Translations under genes and position numbers: made by a program | Virus record (IMG/VR): IMGVR_UViG_3300020474_000009 | Span: 1 to 63,771 of that record | Strand: one strand, 5' to 3' | From: a virus | Lineage: Duplodnaviria > Caudoviricetes | DNA length: 63,771 nt | In this document: positions 39,071 through 60,200 of the stretch, one piece after another | Layout of the letters: every line of letters begins with the position of its first letter | Position numbering within the stretch: position 1 is the first letter of the stretch | The notes under the pieces: generated by a model | Databases searched by the model: none | What the model saw: only the letters and a program-made list of their open reading frames with translations | What the model was told of the DNA's origin: nothing

Positions 39071-42000
39071 TACATACCTCCAAACTGACCTGCGTTAGTC
39101 ACACTATAAGTTTCCGTTACACCTTGTATAGTAAGAGTAGCTTGCCTAATTGCGCCGTTCTGATTTGCTCCACTTGTTACTTTTAACTGTATGGTGTCCC
39201 CAACAGAAACAGTAGCAGGAGTTTGTTGATATGATCCCCCATTTATACTCATTGCTCTTGTGTTGTGTCCAGTCAAAGTTGCTGTGCCGCTATCAAAACC
39301 AGTACCAGCTAATGTAATAGTATTAGAATACATAACTGTATTGAACGACATATTGCCTGTTATATCGTTAAATGTAAATTGTTCAGGTTGATTAAGAGCT
39401 AATCTCTGGAATGAATACTCTACACTAGTTAAATACCTAGTTCCCCCATCACCCTGAGCGTGTATATACAAACGTGTAGGTATGGTGTTTGCACTTATCT
39501 TTTTAAACGTAACAGATATCTGAGCTACAGCGGTCATAGTTTGGAATCTTGCTATACCAGCCCAGAACTCAGCCCTGTTAGAATGATATTGTATTCCTCC
39601 TGTATCAGCCATCGGCAAAGTACCAGAGTTAGGATCATTACTGTAAGCATCAGCGGCACCAGAAAGTTGCACACCCGAACCACCACTAGAATAAGTACCA
39701 TCTCCTATAGCAATACTTAAAGTTTTAACTTGACCGTTGCCACCAAATACTCTGACGTAGCCCATATATACACCACGTTCTGTTCCTATTTCTCCTACCT
39801 GAGCAAGCCTCATGTCGTTGTTAGCAAACCCACCAATAGTAGTACCTAATACTTTTTTGTTTATAGTTGGTAAGATTAAGTCTTCAACATCAATACGATC
39901 TGCAGAAATTTGACCAGTTGTAATACGTGAACCATCGATCACGGTTGATCCACTTGAACCTAGGTCACTTGCTTGTATAAAGGAAGCATTGATAGCACTG
40001 GCGGCTATGGTATTTGTTTGGATATTACCGCCATGTATAGTCGTTGAACCGTTAGTAGATAAATCAGTAGACTGTATAACACCACCAGATATACGTGCAG
40101 CATCCATAACGCCCGATGTTATACGTGCAGCACTCATAGATCCTGTGGTAATCACGTCCGCACTCAAAGAACCTATCTTTGCTGCTGCAATAGAACCATC
40201 TTTGATCCTGGCTGTGTCTATATAAACAACACCACTATCTACAATAAACGGAGCGGAGCTACTAGAACCATTCCATATAGCAAACTTATCTGCTTGGAAC
40301 TGAACCGAAGAAGCGGTACCACCATCTGAGGCATTTGCTTCGATAACCATACCTGCTACAGAACCGTTAGCGGCTACTTGTAAAACATAAGATGCCTGAG
40401 CATTACCTTCTAAATCTGCTGTTGCATTAGCTAGTTCAGCAACACCTGCATAGGCACCAATAATATTATTAACAGTAGCTGTGTAGCTACTAAAAGCAGT
40501 AGTAGAAGTAGCTGCATCACCAGTAATCTCTATGGTCAAGCTAGTAGTGTTTGGCACAGATTGTATTTTGTGTGTCTTGTTTAGTTGAGTAGTTGTTATA
40601 CCACCAACTGCTGTAGCTCCTACTAGTGTAATGTAAGCTCCTGCGGTTACGTCAGCAGAACTTATACCATGGGCAGAAGTTGTTGTTGAACCAGCAGAGT
40701 TAGTTACAGTTTGTATAGTTACAGTTTTACTAGTATTAGTGGTCTTGATACGTACACCAAACTCTAGTCCTACTGTTGCTTGTAAAGCAGTTATAGAATT
40801 AATGTTAGCAGTGATGTTATTTGCATTAGTAGAAACGTTTACGTTAGTAGAATTAAAAGCACTAGCAATAGCACCACTACCAGTATAACCACTTATGGCA
40901 GCTTGTAGATTTGTTATAGCACCAGCATTAGTAGTAATGTTACCCGCGTTGGTACTAGTGTCCGTTTGCAACTGGGTTATAGCACTAGCATTAGATGCAG
41001 TTCTAGCGTCTGTAACTTCTACCCAAGAGCTACCATTCCAACGATACACTCTATTGTTAGCATCAGTGTCGTACCAGATATCACCAACGTTAGCACCAGT
41101 AGGTTGTGAGTTTTGAGCATAAATTGCAATACCAGAAGTATCATTAACAGCTACCCAGGCGCTACCACTCCAACGATACAACTTATTGTTATCGTCTGAA
41201 TCTATCCAAAGGTCCCCTGCATTACTAGCAGTAGGAGCAGAAGTCTGTATAAAAGTCCTATTACGCAGGTCGATATTTGTTTGTAGCCCCTGGATAGCAG
41301 TAGCGTTTGTACTTATATTCCCTGCGTTTGTACTAGTGTTTGTTTGCAACTGAGTTATAGCAGAAGCATTAGCAGCTAATCTAAGATCATCTACAGCTAC
41401 CCAAGCGCTTCCGTTATAACGATATTGCTTATTATTATCATCTGTATCAAACCAAAGGTCGCCTGCATTACTTCCACTAGGTTGCGAGTTTTGAGCGTAA
41501 ACTGCTATGCCCGAAGTGTCATTAACAGCTACCCAAGCACTGCCACTCCAACGATAGAGTTTGTTGTTATCATCTGAATCTATCCAAATATCACCTGTAT
41601 TAGTAGCGGTAGGCGCAGAAGTGCTAATAAAAGTTCTGTTCCTTAAATCTATATCAGTTTCTAATTGAGTAACTTGCCCTGAAATAGTGGATATGTCTCC
41701 AGCGTTGGTAGTAGTAGCAGTTTGTAATGAAGATATTGCAGAAGCATTAGCAGCTAGTCTAGCGTCATCTACAGCTACCCAAGCTGTCCCGTTATATCTA
41801 TACTGTTTATTATTGTCGTCCGTATCAAACCATAAATCGCCAACGTTGCTGCCTGTAGGTTCTGAAGTTTGTGCGTAAACAGCAATGCCTGAAGTGTCGT
41901 TGACCGCAACCCAGGAGCTACCATTCCAGCGGTAAAGTTTGTTATTGTCATCTGAATCTATCCAGAGGTCACCTGCATTGTCTGCAGTTGGTGCAGAAGT

Positions 42001-44076: not shown

Positions 44077-46049
44077 TACACACCCTTAAGCTCTACAATA
44101 GACTCTCCTAGGCATACCTCATTTATAACTTTTGCAGACTCTACTTCAAAAGCAAAAGTTTTATGTACACTTGCTGGTAAACGCACTACTGGTTCAGGTA
44201 TAGCTGTGGCACTAAAACTAGGAGTAGTTCCCGTTACACTATAACCACTACCGCTCGTAGAAATAGTAGCATTATAGATAACACTATTATCTCCATATAC
44301 TTTTAGTGTTACTGGATAAGCTTCTGCATCTACCTTTGCAAAACCAAAACTTGTATGCCGTGCAACTGCAAACTCTTTACTCTTCCAATTGTACGTAAGG
44401 TTGTTAGTGCTGCCTTGGAACTTTTTAATTTTGTTACCTACTATTAAATATAGCTGGTTGTCATCTGGATCAGTAAAACCGCCACGTATCAAAGCATTTG
44501 CATCTAAATCTACTAGGGCATTTGTACCTTGTCGGGGGTCGAATATAAAACCACCAAAACCAGAGCCTGTATTGTAGAAACCTACATATCTGCCTTGCCA
44601 ATAAAAACCTGTAATAGTAGAAGGGTAATAATTAGCTTGCCATTGTTCTGGTGTTATTAAACCTTCTGTTAAGTTTTGTGCTGTTGCACCTGCTGCAACC
44701 ATAAGGCCGTTAGGGCCAGCATAATAAACAGACTCTCCCATATCTACCATAGACCTTTTACTTAGTCCGGCTTCTGCTGTTTCTATTTTTATAGCTACCA
44801 TAGCAGATGGATCTGTACCTGTTACTAGATAAGGTGGACCTTCTGTAGTAACAATTAGACCATTAGAAGTGGCTTTCATGCCAACAATTTTTTCTTCTAT
44901 ACCTATTCTGTAATTAGCAGGCCAAGCGTGCGGTTGATACGCTTCACTAAAACATATTCTATTGCCAGTAAACCCAGCAAAAGTACCGTTGCCCAAGGCT
45001 AATAAGCCTTTCATAGGTCCGTCTGGATATAAAGACGTATTATCATCTGGTGGTGCAATCCAATCACTAGAAGGTATAACTTCAGCTAGCTCGCTGTTTT
45101 TAGAAGTGTCCGTGTAAGATGTAGCTGACAAAGCAAGCTCTGCTACGAACTGAAACTCTGTTGTATTAGAACCTGTATTAGACCTGTATATTCTTTTCTT
45201 TGATAAGTTTGTATTAGTAATACTTGTAGATGTTTCTAAACTAGATAGGTTTACAGACATATTATCATCTGTAGTTATAACAGCAGAAGCTGGTGATGGT
45301 GGACCTTCTTCTCCATATGCAGATACAAAAGTATATACAAAGCTAGTATCGTAATCTAATTCTGCATCTGAATTTTCACCAAAGCTAGCACCATTTGATA
45401 TAGAGCTACTAGTAACACCAGAAGTAGCAGCTGCAGATAAAATAACTGTAACTGTAGTATCACTAGGAACTGTTCTTATCCTAAAGGTACCGTTTATATC
45501 AGAGGCGGCTATACCACCTATCGTACCTGTTACATTTGCAATTGTTATGTAGTCATCTACTGAAGCGCCATGAGCTGATGCAGTAGTAACAGTTATAGTA
45601 GAACTTTCATTAGTAGTTGTTATTGTTATATTGAGGGTGGTACCCCCACCTACTGCCACTGTGGGAGCTGCAGTTGGGGCAGGAATACCTAATCGATAAC
45701 CAGCATTTGGAAATACACTACCACCTATAACATCAGAACTTCTACCCATTTTAGGAAAAGATTGACCTGACCAGTATATCGTGTCGTTAGTATCTCCTGG
45801 TATAGGACTACGCACGACATCTACATCTTCATCAAACTGTAGCCAACGTTCTGGGTTATCGGTGTATTTAAATATAGATTGTCTGTTGGAATTAGAAAGA
45901 GTTAAAGTGTCAGAGTTATCTCTGATAGGCACTAAACGACCACTCTCAAGGTTTACATCCGTAGCTACTGTAGCTAGTTCATCCTTTAAGAGACGTGGTG
46001 AAGCTTTAGGAGCGAGCCCTCCAAAAGTATTAAGTTTAATATATGCCAT
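44076..46049 (-). CDS. Tail tubular/nozzle-like structural protein
   Basis: FGGLAP N-terminus, FSEAYQPHAWP, YNWKSKEF; beta-rich. Confidence 0.65.
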   Translation of the reverse strand: MAYIKLNTFGGLAPKASPRLLKDELATVATDVNLESGRLVPIRDNSDTLTLSNSNRQSIFKYTDNPERWLQFDEDVDVVRSPIPGDTNDTIYWSGQSFPKMGRSSDVIGGSVFPNAGYRLGIPAPTAAPTVAVGGGTTLNITITTTNESSTITVTTASAHGASVDDYITIANVTGTIGGIAASDINGTFRIRTVPSDTTVTVILSAAATSGVTSSSISNGASFGENSDAELDYDTSFVYTFVSAYGEEGPPSPASAVITTDDNMSVNLSSLETSTSITNTNLSKKRIYRSNTGSNTTEFQFVAELALSATSYTDTSKNSELAEVIPSSDWIAPPDDNTSLYPDGPMKGLLALGNGTFAGFTGNRICFSEAYQPHAWPANYRIGIEEKIVGMKATSNGLIVTTEGPPYLVTGTDPSAMVAIKIETAEAGLSKRSMVDMGESVYYAGPNGLMVAAGATAQNLTEGLITPEQWQANYYPSTITGFYWQGRYVGFYNTGSGFGGFIFDPRQGTNALVDLDANALIRGGFTDPDDNQLYLIVGNKIKKFQGSTNNLTYNWKSKEFAVARHTSFGFAKVDAEAYPVTLKVYGDNSVIYNATISTSGSGYSVTGTTPSFSATAIPEPVVRLPASVHKTFAFEVESAKVINEVCLGESIVELKGV

Positions 46050-46056
46050 TTGTTCA

Positions 46057-46509
46057 TTATACAGTATTCAGAACTGACTTCTGCAGTTCTCGACTCCTTC
46101 TTCCTACTTGATTAAACCATCTGCTGTCTTCCATTTCAGCAGCCATCCTTTTCCAATCATGCTCTCTGCATGCTGCTAGCATGTTGCGGAACTTAGAAAG
46201 CCTAGTCCCTCCTAGATTAAAACACATATTTACCAACACGTGTTGAATATTTTCGGGCAGGTTATAAAAATCTTCTTCCTTACCAAACACATGCAATGTT
46301 TCATCTAGATGTTTAATAAAATCATCCTCATAATACATGTCTACTACTTCTTGAGTAACTGGTGTGCCTACTTCCCAGTTATATTCAGGATCGTTAGGTT
46401 GGCAAAGATGGCCTACGCCAAGTGTTTTGTAGCCTAGACTATCTTTGTATATCTCTAAAACCTCACCTTCGTGTCTTTTAATCTCTTCTTTTAGTAATTC
46501 TATATTCAT
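46057..46509 (-). CDS. Endolysin, T4-lysozyme-like muramidase
   Basis: HEGEVLEIYKDSLGYKTLGVGH; NMCFNLG; DSRWFNQVGRR. Confidence 0.88.
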   Translation of the reverse strand: MNIELLKEEIKRHEGEVLEIYKDSLGYKTLGVGHLCQPNDPEYNWEVGTPVTQEVVDMYYEDDFIKHLDETLHVFGKEEDFYNLPENIQHVLVNMCFNLGGTRLSKFRNMLAACREHDWKRMAAEMEDSRWFNQVGRRSRELQKSVLNTV

Positions 46510-46754
46510 GGGGTTATTATCCTGTCGTCTACTGCTTTGATGTTATCTTCTTTCATAAAGACTTGCAGTTCTGTGACAACGGTTTTCTGTGCTGCTTCTA
46601 CCTTCTTAAGGTTAAAACTAGCATCCTGCCACTCGCTTTGTAGTCTAACTAACATGTTAAACTGCTCGGCTACGCGCTCAGTCATTTTAGATATATCGTA
46701 TTGTTTACCATCAAAGTTGATTACTTGTGGTACTTGCTTTTCGGCTTTTGCCAT
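46506..46754 (-). CDS. Hypothetical coiled-coil protein
   Basis: 82 aa, AGGAGGT RBS. Confidence 0.65.
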   Translation of the reverse strand: MAKAEKQVPQVINFDGKQYDISKMTERVAEQFNMLVRLQSEWQDASFNLKKVEAAQKTVVTELQVFMKEDNIKAVDDRIITP

Positions 46755-46763
46755 GATTACCTC

Positions 46764-46946
46764 CTATAATAGATTAGACCCAATGATAAGTAGATACACA
46801 CCTATAATCATTGTGGTGAACTTAGTGTCCATACGGTCAAACTTAGCGTCTCCTTTGTCTAAGCGTTTTTCAATAGCAGAATATCGAATGTTGCACTCTC
46901 TTTCGTGCGCTTCAATCTTTGCTAATGTTTCTTTAACCGTGGCCAT
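46764..46946 (-). CDS. Small coiled-coil + C-terminal TM protein (possible holin)
   Basis: HERECNIRY...RMD...IIGVYLLII; near the endolysin. Confidence 0.55.
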   Translation of the reverse strand: MATVKETLAKIEAHERECNIRYSAIEKRLDKGDAKFDRMDTKFTTMIIGVYLLIIGSNLL

Positions 46947-46960
46947 AGATAGATTATATG

Positions 46961-47767
46961 TTATATGATCTCAACTATACAAGGTTTGTTGTAAACGAAA
47001 GTAGTGTTGCTAGCGTAGGTTCCGCTTGTAAAACCACCAGAATAACTAGCTTGAAATACTCTACTAGTACCAGAAGTAAAACTAGTCCAGCCATCAGACC
47101 TGTTAAAAGTATCTGTAGAATTGTAAAAAGTATAAGTAGTACCACTAAGGGTGACTTGGTAATACCCATTTGGGTTAAGGTTTCGTACGCGTATTGTAGT
47201 CCAACAGTTTTCTGGTGGAGCACTTACCTGATACCCAGAGTTAGATACTACAAAATACAGAGTACCACCGCCAAGAGGAGCACTTTTAGACCCCATACCT
47301 GCAATATTCGTTACTCCATTAGTAACGGATGGAAAACTAGCTACTTGAAAGTTTCCGTTCCGGACATTAGTTCCAGAAGCTCCAGCAGGGGTAGAAGCAC
47401 CATTTGTTGCACCCAAACCAAAAAAACCTTGCGCCGTACTGTTAGTTAACCCTGATATAAGCAGTTTAGAACCAGAAGTAAAAACACCATGGTAAGTAGT
47501 GGTTGTCTGTCCTTTAGTTGATCCAGTAGTTGCTGATGTGGTTACACCCGTAAGACCACAGGTATCTGCAAGATCCGAATAAGCTATAGTTGTGGATTGA
47601 GGATGATTGACAGCATTGCCTACAGCACCATTTCTTGTTGTGGTCATAAGTCTGTAGTCAGATAAAGCTACATTAGAATTAGACTTAGCTGATACACCCT
47701 GTTGAGGTGTACGGTAGGTAGATGCTAATTCTGCATTATCTATATTTTCACTTGTAAAAAAGGGCAT
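46961..47767 (-). CDS. Putative virion/fibre-associated protein
   Basis: 268 aa, T/S/G/N-rich beta composition. Confidence 0.5.
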   Translation of the reverse strand: MPFFTSENIDNAELASTYRTPQQGVSAKSNSNVALSDYRLMTTTRNGAVGNAVNHPQSTTIAYSDLADTCGLTGVTTSATTGSTKGQTTTTYHGVFTSGSKLLISGLTNSTAQGFFGLGATNGASTPAGASGTNVRNGNFQVASFPSVTNGVTNIAGMGSKSAPLGGGTLYFVVSNSGYQVSAPPENCWTTIRVRNLNPNGYYQVTLSGTTYTFYNSTDTFNRSDGWTSFTSGTSRVFQASYSGGFTSGTYASNTTFVYNKPCIVEII

Positions 47768-48435
47768 TAGTAATACTCCATCTTGTATTTTGTAAAAGTA
47801 CAGCTATAACTATCCTTTATACCCGGCATTGTTGCACCTTCAGGTACAGCATAATCTTGAGTAACTTCCCCTAAGTTTACCATGCTGCTCCAATTTTTTA
47901 CATTGGACTCTTCCATGTCTTTAAAATAGTTTATCCAAGATGCTAAGCTGTCATGTATAGGAGAACCTATATCTACATAAGTATAAGCTACAGTAGCACC
48001 TAAAGATTTTTCTAATTTACCTAAAACATTATGATATTCAGGCACAAATAAAAAACCTTTCGTGCCATCTGCATCTGGTCTAAACAAACAGTTACACAAA
48101 TGATACTCGCCATCATCATTAATAAATCCCATAAATAGAGATACAAGATAGTCATTTACATAAGTAGCTAAGATAACACCTCCTGGTTGAGACAAAGCCC
48201 CCAGGCATATATTAAGCCATTCTTCAGTATGTGATTCATCGCTAGCTGCTGCTATTTGTTCTGGAGTAGCATCTATCCCTGGATAAGCATAAGTACCCCT
48301 ATTTATATACTCTCTAGAATTTAAAACTAGATCTTGTAAGATACGTTGTTCGTAGAGAGTATGTATGTCATCTTGTGTAAGCTGTGTTGCTGTGTACATT
48401 CCTACAGTATATCGCCTTTGTACCTTTGTGACCAT
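47767..48435 (-). CDS. Hypothetical protein
   Basis: ORF coupled within the operon; likely start MYTATQ near 48399. Confidence 0.55.
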   Translation of the reverse strand: MVTKVQRRYTVGMYTATQLTQDDIHTLYEQRILQDLVLNSREYINRGTYAYPGIDATPEQIAAASDESHTEEWLNICLGALSQPGGVILATYVNDYLVSLFMGFINDDGEYHLCNCLFRPDADGTKGFLFVPEYHNVLGKLEKSLGATVAYTYVDIGSPIHDSLASWINYFKDMEESNVKNWSSMVNLGEVTQDYAVPEGATMPGIKDSYSCTFTKYKMEYY

Positions 48436-50246
48436 ATAGTAAGACTGTACTTAGTGCCTTCAGTAAGTTCGACACATTCGTGCGGGTGCGTAACTTGTCC
48501 TGGAAACAAAAGCAGTTTACCTACAGGTATATCAGCATTGCTTATACCCTGTCTAGGGAAGAATAACTCGCCACCTTTGTAGTTTTTATTTAATTTTACT
48601 GAACCAGTTACATGCGATGAGTCATGGTGTAGCGCTAGTTTTGTTTGTGAATCAGTAGAATACTTCAACATAAACGCATCTCTTACGCCCTCTACAACCA
48701 TAGGATTCCAATAAGGTTCTATTATAGGTTTGACATGTTTTTGCCAGTGTTCTTCTAACTCTTGGTAAATATTAAGTTGTTTTAGTCTTATCTCTTGTGC
48801 AGGATAAGTGTCGTTAGGTAAACTTTTCCACTCTGCATTTTGTTCTGCTAGTTCTATAAGTCTTTGGCACTGATGTTCTGACATAAAATCTATCAATATC
48901 ATGTCTTTTTCTATGACTTCATAGTTGTGGGTAGGTGTATGAAACAAGTTGTATTGTGGGTACATCTCTTTGTAGATACGTTCAAAGTTATCTTTTGCAG
49001 AGTCATCACCGTTACCATGGTATATACAAGGACAGCAAGTAGTTTCTTGGTTATGTAACTGCTTGCCTAGCGTAGTTATATTAGGTTCGTGGCATTGAAA
49101 GATGTAAGCTTCTACATCAAGACCGATATCATATAGACCTTCTAGGTATGCTTGTTGGTAAAACAATTGGTCATCTTGATGATCTTCTATAACATTGTGA
49201 TCTAGTATCTTTTTTATTTCTCCTACCTCACCTATAAACGTACCAGAGTTAAGATATCTGTATCTGGTGTGTACGGAAGGAAACTGATTGCCTAAACTAG
49301 GATCGGGCCAGCATACTTCTTCTGCAGAAAAAAGTACCTTATGGCCCATATCCAAGTATCTTTCTTTAATTGTTTCTAAGTTGTCTGCGTAAAAAACGTC
49401 GTACGAATCTGTAAAAAGTAAAATATCCGTGTCCGGAAGAATGTTTATATTAGACTTTAGTATATTTACTTTCTGACCACCACCTGGCCCTGTCATATCT
49501 GACCCTCTCCACTCAACACCTGAGCCCCAGTTCTGTATTTTTATATCGTGTTTAGCCGCAGAATCATATAGCTTTTGCATTTTGCTATCGTCTGTGCCAA
49601 TTGTTATTACATGTATAGTCATATCTCTCCTATCGTTACGTATATCAGAAGGTAGCACATCTCTAGTAGCTTGATTGCAAGAGTCTTCTTGTAAAGCAAG
49701 TGCCATAAGACTAGCGTTTCTGATTTGTTCAGGTATGTATTCGTCTACTGGTATTATACCTTCTTCTAGTATATTAGTATTTAACAGCTTTCGTGCACCT
49801 TTTGGTGAGATCACATACGCAGTTGTATTGTATGGGTACCAAGGTCTTTCTAGCCTGTCAGATACTTTTATAGTATTTTCTGGTTCGTTTTCATTGCGTT
49901 GTAAATACAAAAAGTCCCAATACCCTATGGTGCGGTCATAAAAAGGTTCATCCCATCTATCTACATTTATGATTGCATCATCTTCTATTACATAAATAGG
50001 TTCATCTAGTTGCGCACATTTTTTCCACATCTCTCTATGAGATAGAAAACAAGCTATTTCTGTAGGTACAATACCTCTGCTCTGGAATGGGTCTATCCAC
50101 CCTGGCCTAGTTTTATATTCAGATAAATTTTGAGTCAAACCATCTACAGCTTCTACAAAAGTATAGTCTTCTAAGGTTGGGTTTTTATCTATAAAGTGTT
50201 GTTTACGTTCAGGTCTACTCTTTAGGTTTATTACAAATTTTTTCAT
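48402..50246 (-). CDS. Trifunctional GT25 glycosyltransferase / PLOD-type glycosyltransferase / lysyl-hydroxylase-like 2OG-Fe(II) dioxygenase
   Basis: GT25: FVINLKSRPER, EAVDG, EIACFLSH, IEDDA. PLOD-GT: GGGQKV, FTDSYDV, FSAEEVCWPD, YLNSGTFIG, DDQLFY, HGNG. LH: LHHDSS, FPGQVTHPHE, GTKY. Confidence 0.85.
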   Translation of the reverse strand: MKKFVINLKSRPERKQHFIDKNPTLEDYTFVEAVDGLTQNLSEYKTRPGWIDPFQSRGIVPTEIACFLSHREMWKKCAQLDEPIYVIEDDAIINVDRWDEPFYDRTIGYWDFLYLQRNENEPENTIKVSDRLERPWYPYNTTAYVISPKGARKLLNTNILEEGIIPVDEYIPEQIRNASLMALALQEDSCNQATRDVLPSDIRNDRRDMTIHVITIGTDDSKMQKLYDSAAKHDIKIQNWGSGVEWRGSDMTGPGGGQKVNILKSNINILPDTDILLFTDSYDVFYADNLETIKERYLDMGHKVLFSAEEVCWPDPSLGNQFPSVHTRYRYLNSGTFIGEVGEIKKILDHNVIEDHQDDQLFYQQAYLEGLYDIGLDVEAYIFQCHEPNITTLGKQLHNQETTCCPCIYHGNGDDSAKDNFERIYKEMYPQYNLFHTPTHNYEVIEKDMILIDFMSEHQCQRLIELAEQNAEWKSLPNDTYPAQEIRLKQLNIYQELEEHWQKHVKPIIEPYWNPMVVEGVRDAFMLKYSTDSQTKLALHHDSSHVTGSVKLNKNYKGGELFFPRQGISNADIPVGKLLLFPGQVTHPHECVELTEGTKYSLTIWSQRYKGDIL

Positions 50247-50722
50247 TAGTTAAATTCCGTGGCTACTTCTATATCATAGTTCCAGGAGTTTATATTCATA
50301 GACACTCTTTCTCCACTTTGTATAGGTGTAACTTTGTGTTCTAGTCCAGGACCAAACATGACAAGTCTATTTGACACTGGTGTTATACGCATGTTGTTTT
50401 TAAATATAAGCTCACCACCTACTAAATCTTTTACATGTGGATAAAAGACTATAGAGCATATAGGAAAGTGGCTTTGTCCTGTTTTAAAAAAGGTTTGTTC
50501 ATCTCTGTCTTGGTGCCAATCTGGCATACCATTTCTATGAAACCATATGTCATACCCTACTTGGTTATTAAAGTTAAAATAATTAGCTGCTGTATTCATA
50601 AGACGTCTAGCAACTATAGCGTTGTCATGTTCTTCTTCTTTTTTAAAGTAAGTATGTTTGTTCTCGTTGTTTATAGTCTCTAGAGTTGCAGGGTAAAAAA
50701 CTTTATCTACTACTACAATCAT
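50246..50722 (-). CDS. 2OG-Fe(II) oxygenase
   Basis: WHQDRDE (HxD), GGELIF, NRLVMF..LEHKV, ERVS. Confidence 0.85.
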   Translation of the reverse strand: MIVVVDKVFYPATLETINNENKHTYFKKEEEHDNAIVARRLMNTAANYFNFNNQVGYDIWFHRNGMPDWHQDRDEQTFFKTGQSHFPICSIVFYPHVKDLVGGELIFKNNMRITPVSNRLVMFGPGLEHKVTPIQSGERVSMNINSWNYDIEVATEFN

Positions 50723-51285
50723 TTAAATTTCGGTCCTTCTATCCAGGCTACTAAAGATTTACGCACGCCACTAGTTACTGGTTTTACTGTATGTCGTATA
50801 GGTGATGGAAAGCAAAGCACGGTTCCTCGTGTTTTAAGTTGCATTGGATCTGGTTGTTCGTATTGTTTGTCTATCAAAAACTCGCCACCTTCATACTCAC
50901 TAGGATTACTGAGTTGTATAATTAGACTTATTTTTCTATCAAAGGCTGTGCTGTTACCCCAGAATGTATCAAAGTGCCAATCGTAGTAGCCTTCATCAGT
51001 GCCATTGTAGATAGTGTATTGGATGTCTTCTAAGAATGATATATCAAAACCAAACGCTTGTTTATTAGCACGAGAAGCAAAGTCTTGTACTAAGTTTTTT
51101 ATCCAACCTATATGACCTGCCCATCGTACTTCAGAACGTCTAACCTGTGTATTTAGTGATTGTTCTATATTACGACCATCCCCTATGACGGCTTCCATAG
51201 GTTGTAATTGTTCGCACTCTAAAATTATTCTGTCGCAAACTGTAGGGTCAACACCCCCTTGCCACATCTGCCAAATTGAATTCAT
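50719..51285 (-). CDS. 2OG-Fe(II) oxygenase (prolyl-hydroxylase/PKHD-like)
   Basis: YDWHFD, RKISLIIQLS..EYEGGE, FPS..RHTVKPVTSGVRKSLVAW. Confidence 0.9.
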   Translation of the reverse strand: MNSIWQMWQGGVDPTVCDRIILECEQLQPMEAVIGDGRNIEQSLNTQVRRSEVRWAGHIGWIKNLVQDFASRANKQAFGFDISFLEDIQYTIYNGTDEGYYDWHFDTFWGNSTAFDRKISLIIQLSNPSEYEGGEFLIDKQYEQPDPMQLKTRGTVLCFPSPIRHTVKPVTSGVRKSLVAWIEGPKFK

Positions 51286-51300
51286 AACACCTCCTGTGTT

Positions 51301-54300
51301 TTAGTCTTTGTCAGCTAACTCCTTTATAGCTTCTATAAGCAATGGTATGAGTTTATCATACCATACTGTTAGATACTGATCGTCTATTGGAGCTTCGGTT
51401 ATAACTTCTGGCAAGACTTTCTTAACATCTTGCGCACTAAGACCTACCTGTCTTCTTTCATTATCATAACCTAACTCTTTAGCTAGTTCATTCTCTTTGT
51501 AATAGTAACCTGTTAGCTGTAATACTTTTTCAAGTGCGTTATCTATAGGCCCTTCAAACTCTTTTAGTCTTTCATCTGAGTAGTAAGCAGTAATATTGTT
51601 TGTAGCTCTTACCTCACCTGTAGTTCCAGACGCTCCTGTACCTACACCTATTGAGTTTAACTGTGTATTTGAACTTGAGCTTATGCCTGGGCCTGTAGGT
51701 CCGGTTGGTCCTGTAGGTCCGGTTGGTCCTGTAGGTCCTGTTCCACCATTACTACCATTACTACCTGCTGCACCTTTTTGCCCTTTAGGACCTGTACCAC
51801 CACCTGGTCCTGTTGGTCCTGTTGGCCCTGTACCACCTGTGCCACCTGCTTGTCCTTTTTGTCCTTTAGGCCCTGTTGCACCTGTTCCACCTGTTCCACC
51901 TGCTTGTCCTTTTTGACCTTTAGCACCAGTAGGTCCTGTACCACCAGTAGGTCCTGTTCCTCCGCCCGGTCCTGTAGCTCCAGTTGCACCTTTTTGACCC
52001 TTAGGTCCAGTAGGTCCTGTGCCACCGCCTGGCCCAGTAGGCCCTGTTCCACCTGTAGCACCTTTTTGACCCTTAGGTCCTGTGCCACCTGTAGGTCCTG
52101 TTCCACCAGTTGGACCTGTTCCACCTGCTTGTCCTTTTTGACCCTTAGGTCCTGTAGGCCCAGTTCCTCCGCCTGGCCCTGTAGGTCCTGTTGATCCAGT
52201 AGCACCTTTAGCTCCTCCTGGGCCAGTTGGGCCTGTAGGTCCTGTTGGGCCTGTTCCACCTGTTCCACCTATTTCACCTTTTTGACCTTTAGCACCTGCT
52301 GAACCGCCTGGGCCTGTAGGTCCAGTTGATCCGCCTGCTCCAGTTGCTCCTTTAGCTCCTGTAGGTCCAGTTGATCCGCCTGCTCCAGTTGCTCCTTTTT
52401 GTCCTTGTGGTCCTGTTGATCCACCTGCGCCGGTTGCACCTTTGGCACCTGCTGATCCTGTTGGACCTGTACCACCGGTTGCACCTTTAGCACCTGCTGA
52501 TCCTGTTGGGCCTGTAGACCCGCCTGCACCAGTTGCACCTTTTTGACCTGTTGGTCCTGTACCACCCGTTGGCCCTGTACCACCTATTTCGCCTTTTTGA
52601 CCCTTCTGACCTTTAGCTCCTTGTGATCCAGTAGAACCAGTACTACCTGTTGGTCCAGTAGCACCTGTAGCACCTTTTGCTCCAGCGCTTCCGCCTGGGC
52701 CGGTTGCCCCTGTGGCACCTTTTGCACCGCCTGGGCCTGTTGGGCCTCCTGCTCCAGTAGCACCTTTCGCTCCGCCTGGGCCTGTTGGACCAGTACCGCC
52801 TGTAGGACCTGTTGACCCTACCTCACCTTTTTGACCTTTAGCCCCGTTAGAACCATTACTACCTGCAGGTCCTGTAGCACCCGTAGCTCCCTTCTGTCCT
52901 GTTGGACCTGTACCACCAGTAGCTCCTGTTGCTCCTTTCGCACCATCAGAACCGTCTCCACCAGCTGGTCCAGTAGAACCAGTTGGTCCTGTACCACCTG
53001 TAGCTCCTACTTCACCTTTTTGACCTTTAGAACCTGTAGGTCCGGTCGGTCCAGTTGCTCCTGTCGCACCTTTTGATCCAGCTGTACCTGTTGCACCTTT
53101 AGCTCCGTCACTACCATCATCGCCTGCTGGTCCAGTAGGTCCAGTAGGTCCGGTTGGGCCTGTACTACCTGTTGGTCCCCCTGCTCCAGTTGCTCCTTTT
53201 GCACCTGCAGAACCTGTAGAACCACCAGCACCTGTAGCTCCTTTTGCGCCAGTAGCACCTTTTGCTCCACCTGGTCCAGTAGGACCAGTTCCGCCTGTAT
53301 TACCTGTAGGACCTTGGGCACCAGTTGCACCTTTGTCTCCTTGTGGCCCTGTTGGGCCAGTGCCACCCGTTGCACCGGTTGCACCTTTAGCGCCTTGAGA
53401 ACCTGTAGATCCAGTAGGACCCTGTATTGATCCACCACTTACCCATGCTGAACCATCCCAAATATGTAAACTGTCGTCTGCTTGTACTATATAAGCATCA
53501 CCTTTTGTGTTGCCTGAAGATGGTAAGTTACTTGTCTGAGCAACTTGACCTTCCATTGTAATACCAGTACCAGTACTACCTGTAGGTCCTTGTGAACCTG
53601 TTGCACCTTTAGAACCTTGTGGGCCAGTAGGTCCTGTTGCACCTATTTCACCTTTTTGACCTTTAGCTCCAGCAGCACCCGTTGCTCCTTTGTCTCCTGT
53701 AGGACCTGTAGGACCTGTAGCTCCTGTCGCACCTTTTGCGCCATCAGAACCATCTGGACCTGTTGGACCTGTTGGGCCGGTTGCACCGGTTGCACCTTTT
53801 GAACCATCAGAGCCATCTCCACCTGATGGGCCTGTAGGGCCAGTTGGACCTGTACCACCAGTAGCTCCTACTTCACCTTTTTGTCCCTTAGCACCCGTTA
53901 GGCCTGTAGCTCCAGTTGCACCTTTATCACCAGTAGGGCCTGTTGGACCTGTTGCCCCCGTAGCACCTTTAGCTCCAGCAGCTCCGTCATCTCCGTCACT
54001 ACCACCTGGACCAGTAGGGCCAGTAGCACCTATTTCACCTTTTTGACCTTTAGCACCTGTTGGTCCTGTCGGGCCGGTTGCCCCTGTGGCACCTTTAGCT
54101 CCGTCGGAACCGTCACCACCAGATGGACCTGTGTTACCAGTAACACCTACTTCACCTTTTTGACCTTTATCTCCGGTACCTCCCGTTGGACCTGTGCCGC
54201 CTGTTGGGCCTGTTGGTCCGCCTGCACCTGTGGCTCCTTTGTCACCTGCTGCTCCTGTTGCACCTTTATCACCCTGTGGACCCGTTGGGCCTGTAGCTCC

Positions 54301-55308
54301 AGTGGCACCTTTTGCACCAGCAGCGCCATCTGCGCCATCACTACCAGCTGAGCCTCCTGGGCCAGTTGCACCTACTTCACCTTTTTGTCCCGTAGGACCT
54401 GTTGGGCCAGTGCCGCCTGTTGGGCCAGTACCGCCAGTTGCTCCTGTGGCACCTTTATCTCCTTGCGGGCCAGTTGCACCGGTTGCGCCTTTAGCTCCGT
54501 CCGAACCATCATTACCAGATGGGCCTGTTGGACCGGTGCCTCCTGTTGCGCCTTTATCACCTGTTGGACCACCTGGGCCTGTTGCTCCAGTGGCTCCTTT
54601 ATCACCTGTTGAGCCAGTAACACCTACTTCACCTTTAGAACCTGTAGCACCTTTTGCTCCAGCTGTACCAGTTGGTCCTGTCGGGCCTGTTGCTCCGGTA
54701 GCTCCTTTAGCACCGTCCGAACCATCAGATCCAGTAACACCTACTTCACCTTTTGCACCTGTAGGGCCGGTAGGACCATTTGGACCGGTAGGGCCATCTG
54801 CACCAGTAGGACCAGTTGGACCAGTTGGACCAGCAGCACCGACTTCGCCTTTTGCACCTTGTGGACCAGTAGAACCTGTAGAACCAGTAGGACCTACTTC
54901 GCCTTTAATACCACTACTTGGGCCTTGCCAATTACCAGAGCCATCTATAATAGTATCGCCATCTATTTTGACACCGGTAACATCAATAGTACCGGTTTGT
55001 GAATTTCCATCTAACTGAGGAAAAGCTTCTAAGACTGCGGCTGTTAGACGTAAGTCTACAGCGTCGTTTTGTGAAAATGCGCGTGCGGAAGTACCGTCTT
55101 GTGCACGTGTGACGGTAAGTGTGTTACCGCTTCTACCGGTAACTTTTACAATTTCTTTATTTGTTCCGTCATCGAACGTAACAAAAAACGACTCTCCGCT
55201 ATTTAACGATGGGAAAACTGAACCATCTGTGACACCTATACTTGTGGCACTATTGGTTATGTTACCCGATAGGGCTGTAGTCGCATTGTTCTTAAAAACA
55301 ATAGCCAA
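51301..55308 (-). CDS. Collagen-like tail fibre with C-terminal intramolecular chaperone (peptidase S74-like)
   Basis: About 1000 aa of Gly-X-Y ([15 protein letters not shown]); C-terminal [33 protein letters not shown]. Confidence 0.9.
51685..54910 (-). repeat. Gly-X-Y collagen repeat region, interrupted once by a globular insert (~53430-53570)
   Basis: 9-nt periodicity and translation. Confidence 0.92.
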
Positions 55309-55325
55309 CTTACATCTCCTTTATA

Positions 55326-55751
55326 TTACGAAACAGTTACCGTCCAGGTAATTGTCATAGCGTCTGAAGCACCTTTGTTAACTACTGAGAAAACGGTTCT
55401 ACATAACATAGTTCCACCAGAAGAAGCATTAAAAATACCAGCTTCTGTTATAGCGCCTGTACCTGTTCCAGCTGCAAAAGTGTCGACATAAACAATGTCA
55501 GCACCTGATACAGTTGTAGATGTCAAACCAGTTCTAGCTGACTCACTGCCTAAAGCAGTTTGAGAAGCAGCTGCTGCTGTTGACCCAGTACCAATCGCCA
55601 TGTGGGACATAGCTGTAGCAGAAGCATCTTTGATTCTACTAGCTACGTATCCTTTTCCTGCAGTAACAACTAAGTTAGGAACTTCTTGAACGATCTCATC
55701 ATTGAGGGCAATTGTTAATTTACCTGTTAATTTTAAGCCGTCATTTAACAT
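55326..55751 (-). CDS. Tail structural protein
   Basis: NLVVTAG..MAIGTG..ITEAGIFNA..MLCR..VNK motif of phage tail/collar proteins. Confidence 0.65.
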   Translation of the reverse strand: MLNDGLKLTGKLTIALNDEIVQEVPNLVVTAGKGYVASRIKDASATAMSHMAIGTGSTAAAASQTALGSESARTGLTSTTVSGADIVYVDTFAAGTGTGAITEAGIFNASSGGTMLCRTVFSVVNKGASDAMTITWTVTVS

Positions 55752-55759
55752 AATTTCTC

Positions 55760-56845
55760 CTAGTTAAGTGTATTACTATTTAAAGCCGACGCATTCAGAG
55801 CGCTTTGTCTATTAGCATTTAGAATACTTATCGACTCACTTATTGTAGCACTATCTTGTGCTGATTTACCAAGACTAAATGAATGAGTTTCGGTAATATT
55901 TAAACTGTCTGATTTAGCCATAGCATTAGCCAATGCTTGTGCATCAGCAAAACTAACACTATCAGACTTGTTTAAACTGGTAGATAACGCTTGGTTATCT
56001 GTAAAACTAAAGTTATCTGATTTACCTAAAGCAGTAGATAGCGTTTCACTATCTACAAAACTAAAGCTATCAGATTTACTTAAACTTGTATCTATTGTTT
56101 CGCTGTCAGCAAAACTAAATGAATCTGTATAACCCCCTGGAACAAAGTCTATAGCATGGCTCTCTACCATATTAAACGTGTCAGTCCTGGCTTTAGCCCA
56201 ATCGTACGTAAGTACATCAGATATAGACATAACATTTGTTTTGTCTGCTGCTACGTCAGTAGCTAATGGATCTGATAAAGAAGTTCTATCGTCTAATGTT
56301 ATAGCATCACTAAATGAACGTTCAAAAATAACTACCCTAGAGAAGACTTCTGACATGCTAACACTATCTGTTTTGGCTAAGTTAGGTTCTAAAGATGGGC
56401 TATCTGACATACTAGCTGTATCAGATAGGGCTTTATCCATAGCATAGTTTAATATTTCTGCTACGGACACGGTATCCGTATGTGCCCCAGAGAATGACAC
56501 GACAGGTGTATCTGACATAGTAGCTGTGTCAGCAAAGCTTCTACCAAAAGTTCTAAGTATGTCTATGCTTTCTGTTATACCAAGGCTGTCTGCAAAAGGT
56601 TTGGAAAGCTCAATAGCGTGTTCTTCATCCATGAAGAAAACTTCTGGTCGTATGTCTTTTGATATAGTGTAGACCAAAGCTTCGGTCATACTAAAGCTAT
56701 CGGAAAGTATTCTATCTACAGTGTCTGGATTTAAATATAGGTCTGCAAATTTTAATTGAACGTGAGAAACTTGACCCCGTAGGTCAACGTGTGCGACCTC
56801 ACCTTTGAGATCGACGAATGAGACTATACTCTTTAACTTAGACAT
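55760..56845 (-). CDS. Repetitive S/D-rich virion fibre-like protein
   Basis: About 18-aa repeats KSDSxSFxD. Confidence 0.6.
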   Translation of the reverse strand: MSKLKSIVSFVDLKGEVAHVDLRGQVSHVQLKFADLYLNPDTVDRILSDSFSMTEALVYTISKDIRPEVFFMDEEHAIELSKPFADSLGITESIDILRTFGRSFADTATMSDTPVVSFSGAHTDTVSVAEILNYAMDKALSDTASMSDSPSLEPNLAKTDSVSMSEVFSRVVIFERSFSDAITLDDRTSLSDPLATDVAADKTNVMSISDVLTYDWAKARTDTFNMVESHAIDFVPGGYTDSFSFADSETIDTSLSKSDSFSFVDSETLSTALGKSDNFSFTDNQALSTSLNKSDSVSFADAQALANAMAKSDSLNITETHSFSLGKSAQDSATISESISILNANRQSALNASALNSNTLN

Positions 56846-57219
56846 TAATCAAAGTCGTCTCTGACCTTGAACTTAATCAAGTCCTGAACAGTATGTATAC
56901 CTCCTCCTGAAGTAGTGTATTCTATCTCGCCTTCAAACGTTCCTGCTGTAGTCCAAGTTCCACTTGGAATAGCACAAGTTACTTTGCCGTTATCTGCATC
57001 TGCTATCGTGCCGGTTATTGTTTTGATCAGTGTAGTTTGTCCGACCTCTCGTATTCTAAGTTTTACAGAGCCACCACCTAAGTCTATTGGCGCCCATGTA
57101 TCTGAGTTTTCTGTGTCTAATGTCAAACCAGTAGCAGCAGTATTGCTGTCTTTTAGAGTAAACTCTAAAGACGGTAGTGTATCTCCTACTACGAATTTTA
57201 TTGTGTCTGAGTAAGCCAT
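56845..57219 (-). CDS. BppU-N-like baseplate/fibre-attachment protein
   Basis: GDTLPSLEFTL..DADNGKV..AGTFEGEIEYT..FKVRDDF. Confidence 0.6.
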   Translation of the reverse strand: MAYSDTIKFVVGDTLPSLEFTLKDSNTAATGLTLDTENSDTWAPIDLGGGSVKLRIREVGQTTLIKTITGTIADADNGKVTCAIPSGTWTTAGTFEGEIEYTTSGGGIHTVQDLIKFKVRDDFD

Positions 57220-57227
57220 AATTAATT

Positions 57228-60200
57228 TTACCTCCCTAGGTTCCTAGTGTCTAGCTGACTATATCCTGGTATGTAATCAGCTGCTCTCCAGTCCCAAGTT
57301 ATACCATCATATATTTTTTCTGCTGCAGGTCCTAAAGGCGGTACCCAGAAAGGTTGACCATACCTATGCCTTGCAGAGAATATAGGTAATGCTAAAGCAA
57401 AAGGACCTAGCATGCCACTTCTATCTATTATCTCTGTCATATATTGACCAGTACTCATGCTGTTTGTTTTAAAGTAATTTACTCCAGGGTCATCTCCATC
57501 AATACCGGGTAGTAACTCGGCTAGTAAATATTTAGTTAGCTCTCTGATTTCTAAACCTAGCATAGTAATAGGTACCAAAATACCCGCCATCATTAGTAAA
57601 GGCATAGCTGCTGCACCCGCCCCCTGGTTAACAAAGTTTCTATGTGATTCTTTTAGCGTTGGGAATACAATAGTTTTGCCGTATGCGTAGAAGAATGATT
57701 TAAGCTGCCATATGAGTGCATACCTAGGGTTGTTAGCATAGGTAGGTCTTTGCGCTGGGTTTGGTCTAACTATAGATTCATCTACAAACTGAGCTAACGC
57801 TTCATTTACTTTTTCTCTTGTAGCTGCATCTGCTTTACCTTCTTCCCAAGCTAATACTTGTTCTGCTGTTACGTTTAGTTCTTTTAAATACAGTTGCGCT
57901 GTACTATCACCTTTTTGTGCTTTTCGTGCGCTGTCTTGTAAGAATCTTGTACCCATGCCCGTAGCAAATACTCTAGTAAACTTAGTATAAGCTTCTAAAA
58001 GAGTTACCCTAAACCAAGTGTCAGATACGCCTTTAGCAGTCTGATTCATAAAGTTCTGTTCACCAGCAAATATAAAGAAGCTAGACATAGCATCTACGCC
58101 TATTACTCCTACTTCTCTTGCTAAATCAGCAGCTTCAGTAGGATCTTTTACCATAGTTTTTATAACACTAGCTATATCACTTATCTTGGCTGTACCTCTA
58201 GACCTTAGTACTGGCCCCGCTGTATCTTGTAAAGAAGCTAATACAGTAAAAGCTAATAAGGTTATTATATTTACTGGAAGTAAAACATTGTTTGCTAGTT
58301 TTAACCAACCCTTATCTATAGGAGGTGTCTTACCAAACATAGAATCAATTATGTTTCTTGCGTCTGTTTGTTCTGCTGGTTTTAGTTGTTCAATTAGGCC
58401 GTTTAATTTTTCTACCCCGTCTGACTGCTCAAACTCATATTTTAAAGCTAATTTATCTAGGTATTGTTGTAAACCTACTTCTGCGGGTAAAGCTAAGCCA
58501 GAATCAATTAACTGTTTATTAGTTACATTAGACCATAGCTTTTTCCTTTCTTGCATCATGCCTATGTCTATTTTATCTTGTGGGTTAAAGTCCAACTCAC
58601 CACTACCTAACTTTACAATACCATTTACTGCGTCGTGTATTTCTAAGTCTGTAGCTTTAGGATTAGCTTCTTTTAACAATTGTTTAGCTACTATTTGTAG
58701 GTTTTCGTTACCGGCTATTTCAGCAACTGCAACTACACGAGGGAAGAAATTCTTTCTTTTATCTATGCCGTATCTTTCTAACCCTAAGTCATCATATACT
58801 TCTTCTAGGTAGTTTCTTAGTTCTTGTGCTTTTGGACTTAAGTCCCTAGTACTTTTTGTATCATCTGCTGCTTCATTTACTACCTGTCTTTGCTCGTCTG
58901 TTAGAGATGAGTAAATCCAACCATCTTCAACACCTAGAATTTTAGCAACCTTGTTGTGCATAGCATTTGCTCTTCTAGTTTTTAAAGTAAATATACCTGC
59001 CCTACCAGACTCAGATACAGTTCTAGGGTCTTGGTTAAAAAAGTCTGCTATCTGTACACCTATGGGGCCATAGTTCCTAAGTCTAGTGTCAGCAGTAAGG
59101 AATATTTTTTGCATCCACGTAGGTAATTTTTTACTTCTAAATATCTTACCTGCTTGTTCCATAGCCTTTCTAATTTGTTTATCACTAGCTGTTTCTGGCC
59201 CAAGTATGCTGTCTATCATAGTTTCTATGCTAGCTTTATCTGTATAGGATGCTTGTTGATTAGCTGGATTAACTAATTTTTCCTGGAGTTCAGCTGCATA
59301 CTCTTGAAAAGACTCATCTACTTCTGTTCTTTTTCTATAAGTTTTGCTCTGGTCAAACATTTTCTTTTGTGATTTAGCTAAACGCGTAAACCAAGCTTTA
59401 GCAGGACCATTCATTTGGTCATAAGCTTTGCCATCTACTTCTAGGCCTAGTTCTTTTCTTATAGCTATACCAAACTGGTCTGCAGCAAAATTTTCAAATC
59501 CTGTTTCATTATCAGTGTATGTCTCTGGTGCACCTTCGCTTTCTCTTATTTTTTCGTACGCCTGTAATAGTTTCTTTCTGGTAGCGGGTACTTTTAAACT
59601 TTTTTCTAATTCTTGGAAAGTTAATGAATTACCTAGTTCCTTTAAGAAAGCGCTATAGTACTGTCCTTCTGATACGTTTGCATTTGTTTTCATTAAGATA
59701 ATATCAAAATCAGCGTACTGTAATGTTTTAGCTAACTTATCTTTTTGTTTATTTAGATCAGTCCTTATGTCTTCAAACTGCTTTTGATCAATACTATTTT
59801 TTATACTTGTTTTTAAAGCAGAGTCACTAAAACCTGTCTCTGCAGATATTATATGTAAGTTTGTAGTTAGGCCTAGATTCCTAGCCCCGGCTAGTAGATT
59901 TGTTATTATTTGTTTTCTAAACGGTAAGTTTTGTCTTCTTTGTTCTGGTCTTTTATACTCTTTTCCTGCTAACTTCTTTTCTTTCTGTAATATTTTTTCT
60001 CGGAAGTCTACAACTGTTACACTTTTATATTTTGTATTGTCCTTAAATTTAGGTGGTATGCCTCTGCTCATATCAGCATACCTATCTCTACCTACAAATT
60101 CTTTTCCTTGCTGTGCTTGGTAGTTTTGGAATACATCGTTGTCTTGGACATCTCCTTTTGTATTTGTGTTATCTACTGGCTGCCCTGCACTAACATCGTC

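Follow-up and report, generated by a model that had tools for sequence, protein, structure and literature searches.

A marine phage locus that joins a long collagen fibre to homologues of animal collagen lysyl hydroxylase and glycosyltransferases

Hydroxylation of collagen lysines and their glycosylation with glucosyl-galactose (Glc-Gal) are treated as animal traits, giant viruses excepted. The tailed-phage record IMGVR_UViG_3300020474_000009 raises the question of whether a bacteriophage modifies a collagen of its own in this way. The window analysed here is the whole record, 63,771 bp in length. On its minus strand, four open reading frames (ORFs) follow one another in the order fibre, ox188, ox158 and fusion. 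They encode a collagen-like tail fibre, two small 2-oxoglutarate (2OG)-Fe(II) oxygenases and an enzyme combining a GT25 glycosyltransferase (GT), a PLOD-type GT and a lysyl hydroxylase (LH)-like domain. A first-pass annotation, made from the letters alone, had placed the four genes in one operon at 48402-55308, and all four ORFs are present there, with a gap of 15 nt between fibre and ox188 and overlaps of 4 nt (ox188/ox158) and 1 nt (ox158/fusion). A scan, itself weak evidence, found no terminator-like site on the minus strand within 45500-58000, which fits a single transcription unit. From the enzyme domains, the fibre composition and the gene linkage described below, we consider it probable that the fusion enzyme hydroxylates and glycosylates the lysines of the fibre. 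The module comprises the following features, with the basis of each assignment in brackets.

51301..55308, minus strand: collagen-like tail fibre gene, 1335 amino acids (aa) (Pfam, tail-fibre PHROGs, composition)
54913..55308, minus strand: fibre N-terminal non-collagen domain, aa 1-132 (no Gly-X-Y run)
53563..54912, minus strand: collagen run 1, 150 Gly-X-Y triplets, aa 133-582 (composition)
53422..53562, minus strand: non-collagen interruption of 47 aa, aa 583-629 (composition; also in relatives)
51685..53421, minus strand: collagen run 2, 193 Gly-X-Y triplets, aa 630-1208 (composition)
51403..51579, minus strand: Peptidase_S74 intramolecular chaperone domain, aa 1244-1302 (Pfam)
50719..51285, minus strand: ox188, prolyl-hydroxylase-like 2OG-Fe(II) oxygenase, 188 aa (Pfam, motif, fold model)
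50246..50722, minus strand: ox158, second small 2OG-Fe(II) oxygenase, 158 aa (Pfam, alignment to ox188)
48402..50246, minus strand: fusion enzyme, GT25 + PLOD-type GT + LH-like, 614 aa (Pfam, PHROG, Protein Data Bank (PDB) matches, fold)
49737..50243, minus strand: fusion GT25 domain, aa 2-170, with E88-D89-D90 (PF01755, COLGALT1 match)
49002..49619, minus strand: fusion PLOD-type GT domain, aa 210-415, with D280-x-Y282-D283, H410, W246 and D358/D359 (PF25342, LH3 and R699 matches)
48429..48905, minus strand: fusion LH-like 2OG-Fe(II) domain, aa 448-606, with H540-x-D542, H589, K599 and Y529 (LH3 and L230 matches)

A long collagen fibre and a three-domain enzyme

The fibre protein matches the Pfam collagen family (PF01391) at 319 bits (2.1e-97), carries a C-terminal Peptidase_S74 domain (1.2e-12) and matches many collagen-like tail-fibre PHROGs, phrog_6320 at 2.5e-175. 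Its 343 Gly-X-Y triplets form two unbroken runs (150 + 193). At the collagen triple-helix rise of 0.286 nm per residue, the 1029 helical residues would span ~290 nm, about the length of human type I collagen. The N-terminal domain, 76-99% conserved among related loci, is presumed to attach the fibre to the virion. The C-terminal region is 70-98% identical over most related loci, and its S74 chaperone domain is the likely trimerisation nucleus. The fibre of locus L043 holds a nearly identical counterpart of the 47-aa interruption. Over the fibre gene (51600-55100) the G+C content is 55%, against ~39% nearby; the long ORFs in the remaining frames of this region, opposite strand included, are composition artefacts of GGN/CCN/GCN/ACN codons rather than genes or foreign DNA.

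Residues are distributed unevenly between the two variable positions of the triplets. The fibre has 82 lysines, 68 of them in Y and none in X, and 112 prolines, 104 in X and none in Y; threonine occupies 182 of the 343 Y positions, and Gly-Pro-Thr and Gly-Ala-Thr dominate. The first-pass annotation had pointed to GAK, GQK, GDK, GSK and GPK triplets as repeats of X-Lys-Gly, the LH substrate context. All five are there, counted 29, 19, 9, 5 and 5 times, and this context does recur along the fibre. Similar to the window fibre, known bacterial and phage collagen-like proteins (Scl, BclA-type GPT repeats, tail fibres) combine Gly-X-Y repeats rich in X-Pro and Y-Thr with a C-terminal trimerising domain, but the window fibre differs from them in its 343 triplets and its dedicated set of modification enzymes. 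Passages of a review (PMC8968730) describe prokaryotic collagens as mostly without such modifications, and phage collagens as tiny.

The 614-aa fusion enzyme is matched by Pfam GT25 (PF01755) over aa 2-170 (84.3 bits, cut-off 24; 1.3e-23) and by GT_PLOD (PF25342) over aa 210-415 (180.7 bits, cut-off 27; 3.6e-53), and phrog_61, labelled '2OG-Fe(II) oxygenase', spans the whole protein (4e-117). Searched with phmmer against the PDB, it matches human LH3 in both the GT domain (1.1e-28) and the LH domain (1.3e-8), mimivirus R699 (2.4e-28), the LH domain of mimivirus L230 (9.5e-9) and COLGALT1 (~6e-17). The GT25 domain alone matches COLGALT1 at 5.6e-18 and bacterial GT25 enzymes at 1.9e-5, the latter in the N-terminal part only. 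An AlphaFold model built with 30 homologues has a mean predicted local distance difference test score (pLDDT) of 85.4, and in a Foldseek search of the PDB with this model full-length LH3 ranks first. The LH3 GT domain (6wfv) is matched with a template modelling (TM) score of 0.84 and 2.2 Å root-mean-square deviation (rmsd) at 34% identity, R699 with an rmsd of 2.2 Å, COLGALT1 structures with 3.1-3.3 Å at 28% identity (9evj, 3.3 Å) and the L230 LH domain (6ax6) with a TM score of 0.71 and an rmsd of 2.6 Å over 170 columns. No prolyl 4-hydroxylase (P4H) or prolyl hydroxylase domain (PHD) fold is among the top 50 Foldseek matches listed. The three-domain architecture that the first-pass annotation had put forward is thereby borne out, each domain matching its collagen-enzyme counterpart in sequence and in fold, human LH3 and COLGALT1 included. 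The protein is a minimal concatenation of three catalytic domains in the order GT25, PLOD-GT, LH.

Catalytic residues were mapped on the PDB-search alignments to LH3 and COLGALT1, with roles taken from parts of PMC6082870 and PMC12003778, and their conservation was scored over 30 fusion homologues of 48-87% identity. In the LH3 GT domain, as set out in part of PMC6082870, a non-canonical DxxD with a stacking tyrosine, together with a histidine, binds Mn2+; this site (D112/Y114/D115 and H253) corresponds to D280/Y282/D283 and H410 of the fusion. The LH3 glycoloop Trp75 is W246, the poly-Asp pair D190/D191 is D358/D359, the iron triad H667/D669/H719 is H540/D542/H589 and Tyr656 is Y529. The unusual EDD metal motif ascribed to the catalytic GT2 domain of COLGALT1 in part of PMC12003778 corresponds to E88-D89-D90. 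With the exception of Y282, the mapped catalytic residues are invariant in 30/30 homologues.

As in human LH3/PLOD3, the fusion thus pairs a GT domain bearing the DxxD(Tyr)...His Mn site, the glycoloop tryptophan and the poly-Asp pair with an LH domain at the C terminus that keeps HxD...His and the counterpart of Tyr656. Unlike LH3, which works in the endoplasmic reticulum, it belongs in a bacterial cytoplasm, lacks the central AC domain, has Lys in place of an Arg and Leu in place of Cys691, and carries a GT25 domain in front. With human COLGALT1/GLT25D1, the hydroxylysine galactosyltransferase, its GT25 part shares the catalytic GT2 domain and the EDD motif, but not the non-catalytic GT1 domain. 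Only a GT2-like domain is present (fusion aa 3-174 against COLGALT1 chain residues 303-501) and not the two-domain COLGALT architecture, so the GT25 part falls short of a full COLGALT orthologue. Animals make COLGALT1 and LH3 as two proteins that assemble into a complex (title of PDB 8zgc), whereas in the phage the domains form one polypeptide. Mimivirus L230 (LH + GT) and R699 (a galactosylhydroxylysyl glucosyltransferase) are likewise encoded by a virus and act on the virus's own collagen-like fibres; mimivirus, however, is a giant virus of amoebae with eukaryote-like biology and separate or bifunctional enzymes, whereas here a bacteriophage carries a three-domain fusion that includes GT25.

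Linkage to lysine-rich collagen genes across marine phages

The fusion enzyme is widespread in viral and metagenomic sequences. It matches more than 1000 clusters of a metagenome protein set at E <= 1e-10 and at least 489 IMG/VR contigs, and full-length homologues occur in 11 records of a phage collection. Nine of the 11 are Synechococcus myovirus records of 144-177 kb (S-CAM9, S-PRM1, S-8S53, S-8S55, S-8S56), and the other two are a single-cell-derived marine virus and the 45-kb Roseobacter phage CRP-6. Gene order in the cyanomyovirus S-CAM9 is tail fibre, small ORF, oxygenase, oxygenase, fusion, and in CRP-6 tail fibre, collagen tail fibre, small tail protein, fusion; the collagen segments of both share the G-x-K-G-Q-K-G-E motif of the window.

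For a wider comparison we took the best 80 of the 489 confirmed IMG/VR places, and 82 related viral loci were compared. A collagen gene was counted as linked if it was a same-strand ORF with at least 15 triplets, and loci were counted if they had at least 3500 bp of flanking sequence. A collagen ORF lies upstream of the fusion in 46/46 such loci, at gaps of -4 to 3261 bp, and all 22 loci lacking one have less than 3400 bp of upstream sequence. Downstream, which serves as an internal control, no collagen ORF was found in any of 56 loci with at least 3500 bp (438 kb in total). Homologues of the fusion were therefore not found apart from collagen genes, and the co-occurrence check that the first-pass annotation had proposed came out in its favour.

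Lysine placement in the linked fibres follows the pattern seen in the window. Over 9660 triplets from 48 distinct linked fibres, lysine occurs 2259 times in Y and not once in X, and the median share of Y positions held by lysine is 19.9% (range 12.5-51.2%). As an external control, a scan for 12 consecutive GGN-spaced codons gave at least 118 viral collagen-like loci, and 78 of those listed, with at least 25 triplets and enzyme-free at the locus, formed the control set. Their median Lys-Y share is 0.5% (interquartile range 0-7.1%, maximum 37.9%), with 275 lysines in Y and 71 in X; the Mann-Whitney p for linked against control fibres is 3e-14, a value inflated by kinship among the linked fibres. 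Two of the 118 listed loci do carry the enzyme, L182 as the full fusion and L166 as a variant. The L166 fibre, on record G005, is the richest in Lys-Y among the loci of the control scan (161/284 triplets, 57%). The G005 variant module (L202, 409-2673 and 2673-3260) encodes a 754-aa GT4 + GT25 + LH-like fusion followed by a Sulfotransfer_2 protein; related modules can thus swap their GT parts, and the glycan part is variable. In the converse direction, 15 of 18 Lys-Y-rich control records were searched (L128, L104 and L112 were left out) and a related enzyme was found in one.

Only seven loci from cellular genomes contain the fusion, all of them on contigs of metagenome-assembled genomes (MAGs) or single amplified genomes (SAGs), and nothing about these seven points to a gene that resides in cellular genomes. 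The MAG contigs L203-L208, assigned to Neomarinimicrobiota, Gammaproteobacteria and Bacteroidia, carry the fusion together with a collagen gene where room allows. One of them, L204 (PBPT01000002.1, 60,834 bp), is the size of a phage genome, which suggests a phage sorted into a bin and not a gene of the host.

The closest known systems are the animal pair LH3 and COLGALT1 and the mimivirus pair L230 and R699. New here are the bacteriophage setting in a bacterial cytoplasm, the fusion of three catalytic domains without accessory domains and the breadth of the module in marine phages. Full-text literature searches, with subscription journals and supplements outside their reach, turned up no description of a lysyl hydroxylase or collagen glycosyltransferase from a phage, and public records label homologues of the fusion only as hypothetical protein, 2OG oxygenase or lipopolysaccharide (LPS) glycosyltransferase.

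Small oxygenases, a proposed pathway and its alternatives

Both small oxygenases match 2OG-FeII_Oxy_3 (PF13640) above the cut-off, ox188 at 55.4 bits and ox158 at 33.3 bits. In ox188, H104-x-D106, H165 and R175 are invariant in 19/19 sequences. Its profile matches PKHD/PiuC-type hydroxylases in the PDB at 3e-9 and then prolyl 4-hydroxylases at ~3e-4, and its model (pLDDT 90) is closest in fold to Pseudomonas putida P4H, the PBCV-1 collagen prolyl hydroxylase, and Dictyostelium and human PHDs, PHD2 included. With the P. putida enzyme PPHD and the viral PBCV-1 enzyme, ox188 shares the fold (4iw3, TMq 0.76; 5c5t, E 2.6e-10) and the HxD...H...R core, at a sequence identity of only 16-20%. ox158 aligns with ox188 over the HxD...H...R core, and its occurrence is limited to loci with a fusion at least 74% identical to that of the window, one of which (L025, 80%) lacks it. 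The first-pass annotation had left the two proteins as general 2OG-Fe(II) oxygenases; both are better read as prolyl-hydroxylase-like. A role for ox188 as a second lysyl hydroxylase was rejected, as it resembles the fusion LH domain only remotely (hhalign probability 83%) and its folds are those of prolyl hydroxylases.

The canonical substrate of collagen P4H, X-Pro-Gly, does not occur in the fibre: proline is in Y in 0/343 triplets and in X in 104/343, so any proline hydroxylation would be at X and not at the classic site. The distribution of ox188 over 15 related virus records, with completeness of at least 99% taken as complete, was compared with the X-Pro counts of their fibres. A homologue occurs in 8/8 complete genomes with Pro-rich fibres, in three of these and in one further, 75%-complete record at tens of kilobases from the fibre, and in 0/4 complete genomes whose fibres hold 0-1 X-Pro. 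Three records are incomplete. One has a Pro-rich fibre and ox188, and one, 48% complete, has a Pro-rich fibre without it; the third, contig G025 (71% complete), runs counter to the pattern, with a divergent ox188 homologue beside a Pro-free fibre. The four Pro-poor genomes probably form one clade, so the pattern is suggestive and not proof. The most likely role of ox188 is prolyl hydroxylation, directed at the X-position proline of Gly-Pro-Thr and related triplets. The Pro-poor type of fibre is seen in loci L045-L049, L053-L057, L064 and L073, where proteins of ~1700-2130 aa have collagen parts with no or almost no proline and with lysine at 31-43% of Y positions; the four complete 53-kb genomes with such nearly Pro-free, Lys-Y-rich fibres have no ox188 homologue.

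Taken together, the genes probably make up a late tail-fibre module of a ~64-kb marine podovirus, and the fibre that it yields would be a collagen homotrimer whose triple helix spans 1029 residues. The chains would be made late in infection, and in the host cytoplasm, before they fold, the fusion would act on them. The Fe(II)/2OG domain at its C terminus would convert Y-position lysine in X-Lys-Gly to hydroxylysine (Hyl), the GT25 domain would add a first sugar, by homology beta-Gal from uridine diphosphate (UDP)-Gal, and the PLOD-type GT a second, by homology alpha-1,2-Glc from UDP-Glc; ox188 would hydroxylate X-position proline. The S74-type chaperone would then trimerise the chains and nucleate C-to-N zipping, and would probably be cut off afterwards, in line with the cleavage behaviour of its domain family. 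The interpretation offered in the first-pass annotation, a glycosylated hydroxylysine collagen made by a trifunctional enzyme, is thus supported by the sequence and fold-model comparisons, the collagen linkage and the confinement of lysine to Y, all the computational checks that it named having come out in favour. By analogy with the animal enzymes the exact product may be Glc-Gal-Hyl, which we consider about half as probable as lysine modification itself. We infer that the most likely benefit would be a stable, soluble and protease-resistant long fibre in a Pro-poor, hydroxyproline-free background. Still more broadly, and tentatively, many marine phages, from 45-kb podoviruses to 177-kb cyanomyoviruses, may make animal-type collagen with Glc-Gal hydroxylysine and X-hydroxyproline in ~300-nm fibres by means of a single-chain LH-GalT-GlcT enzyme that needs neither accessory domains nor a two-protein complex.

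If the enzyme is active, it would reveal a means by which phages stabilise or decorate the very long fibres that reach receptors, and it would offer a compact tool for recombinant modified collagen, for example glycosylated hydroxylysine collagen in E. coli. Cultured test systems exist in S-CAM9, grown on Synechococcus, and in CRP-6, whose host is a Roseobacter strain. The family would also be a new reference point for the origin of the PLOD and COLGALT enzymes.

Several observations weigh against lysine modification by the fusion or against reading its details from the animal enzymes. The match of the fusion to 2OG-FeII_Oxy_3 (PF13640, aa 529-606) reaches 25.6 bits, just under the cut-off of 27. 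The 2OG-binding Arg729 of LH3 is K599 in the fusion and Cys691 is L561, both invariant among the homologues; K599 could still bind 2OG in place of the arginine. The predicted TM score (pTM) of the fusion model, 0.46, means that the domains are reliable and their mutual arrangement is not. Substrate handling may differ, since the LH3 AC and COLGALT1 GT1 domains are absent. The order of the sugars cannot be read from homology, as mimivirus L230 reportedly transfers Glc straight to Hyl. To a large extent the linked fibres are homologues of each other, and the counts and the p value therefore do not represent independent events. Four contigs at least 90% complete (G006, G007, G008 and G014) have Lys-Y shares of 15-38% and no fusion homologue, and Lys-Y alone thus does not predict the enzyme. 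Finally, passages of PMC11923368 report that KGE triplets are over-represented in viral collagens and that the lysine of K-G-E forms salt bridges. Such bridges can account for some of the Y-lysines: in the window, 13/68 stand directly before G-E and 55/68 do not.

Among the alternatives, the one that survives best keeps the fibre as the substrate and changes the chemistry: the PLOD-type GT of the fusion would place Glc directly on hydroxylysine, as L230 of mimivirus reportedly does, or its GT25 domain would act on Y-position threonine, the residue modified in Thr-galactosylated collagens, or another sugar would be used. We regard this as rather unlikely, although the dominance of Gly-Pro-Thr and Gly-Ala-Thr, with threonine in more than half of the Y positions (182/343), is consistent with it, as are the swapped GTs (GT4+GT25+LH) and sulfotransferase of the G005 module. 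(Gly-Pro-Thr)10, moreover, reportedly folds only when its threonine is galactosylated (cited in a passage of PMC11923368). Threonine glycosylation in particular is difficult to reconcile with a GT25 domain that is always fused to an LH domain, that is far closer to the hydroxylysine-specific COLGALT1 (5.6e-18, EDD) than to bacterial GT25 (1.9e-5), and that is kept beside the low-threonine fibre of L045, where Y holds 23 Thr against 73 Lys in 171 triplets.

It is improbable that the enzymes are host-takeover or auxiliary genes acting on LPS sugars, EF-Tu or ribosomal proteins, with the fibre adjacent by chance and its Y-lysines serving K-G-E bridges. Database and PHROG labels do point that way, the former naming a 'GR25 family glycosyltransferase involved in LPS biosynthesis' and the latter assigning the matching oxygenase families to auxiliary metabolic, host-takeover or nucleic-acid-metabolism functions; ox188 comes closest in fold to an EF-Tu prolyl hydroxylase, and the excess of KGE in viral collagens (parts of PMC11923368) would fit as well. 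However, such a target would leave unexplained the one-sided collagen linkage (46/46 upstream, 0/56 downstream) in phage genomes from 45 kb to 177 kb, the complete exclusion of lysine from X over 9660 triplets, the best match of every fusion domain to a collagen enzyme and the 55/68 window Y-lysines that are not before G-E. That the oxygenases target nucleic acids, in repair or base modification of the AlkB or JBP kind, and that the GTs glycosylate DNA bases, is very improbable: the PHROG names 'DNA endonuclease' and 'endonuclease V' that suggest it rest on weak partial matches (phrog_2297 at 2.2e-10, phrog_274), whereas phrog_61 covers the whole protein at 4e-117, no nucleic-acid oxygenase is among the top PDB sequence or fold matches, and the genes lie in the tail module and not in the replication module.

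The phage genome and neighbouring genes

Besides the collagen module, the window genome encodes a portal (phrog_156), a large terminase (phrog_38), a family-A DNA polymerase, a primase/helicase, an internal virion protein, a phage lysozyme and fibres of the tail tip. Among terminases, the nearest to its own is that of Aeromonas phage phiA008 (51%), followed by those of the ~64-kb Pseudomonas podoviruses phiR18 and KPP25 (~42%), and IMG/VR relatives of the phage are 61-63 kb in length, one with direct terminal repeats. A megablast search with 20 kb of the window gave no match in the phage collection, and a distant blastn search with the module gave only short matches there, in cyanophage oxygenase genes; the collection thus does not contain the phage itself.

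Near-identical DNA is present in marine metagenomes: 17 runs were listed, from six studies of 2014-2024, with at least 94% of sampled words, and some of these may be the source sample. Contigs of runs X13, X15 and X18 were compared with the window over 45500-57500. Those with 0-1 differences per 0.5-1 kb come from marine metagenomes of two 2024 studies, which indicates that the phage genotype recurs. In the RNA-library run X18, contigs of a relative at ~94-96% span the fusion, the oxygenases and the fibre; contigs do not demonstrate transcription and DNA carry-over is possible, so these were not used as evidence of expression.

Two conserved genes follow the fusion.

47767..48435, minus strand: p222, GNAT-acetyltransferase-like predicted fold, a lead only (synteny, predicted structure)
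46961..47767, minus strand: p268, Ser/Thr/Gly-rich conserved neighbour (synteny)

The last 34 nt of the fusion gene are shared with p222, whose product has no Pfam or PHROG match; its Atlas-predicted structure resembles clusters of GNAT N-acetyltransferases with TM scores of 0.53-0.59. In most of the more closely related loci it likewise adjoins the fusion (25-78% identity), and in the L045 clade it lies between fibre and fusion. p222 could be a further fibre- or sugar-modifying enzyme. p268 also has no Pfam or PHROG match and is syntenic in relatives at 35-46% identity.

Two further minus-strand ORFs flank this region. At 39070-44076, a 1668-aa tail protein contains several tandem units of ~115 aa with 'GDLWIDSDDNNKLYRWNGSSWVAV'-like motifs (DUF7360) and a Phage_Tail_Tip domain, and a shorter form of the same motif makes up the 47-aa interruption of the fibre. 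At 57228-63758, the final 6.5 kb of the record are taken up by a 2176-aa ORF whose open frame runs to the record end; it probably encodes a tape-measure-like or giant internal virion protein.

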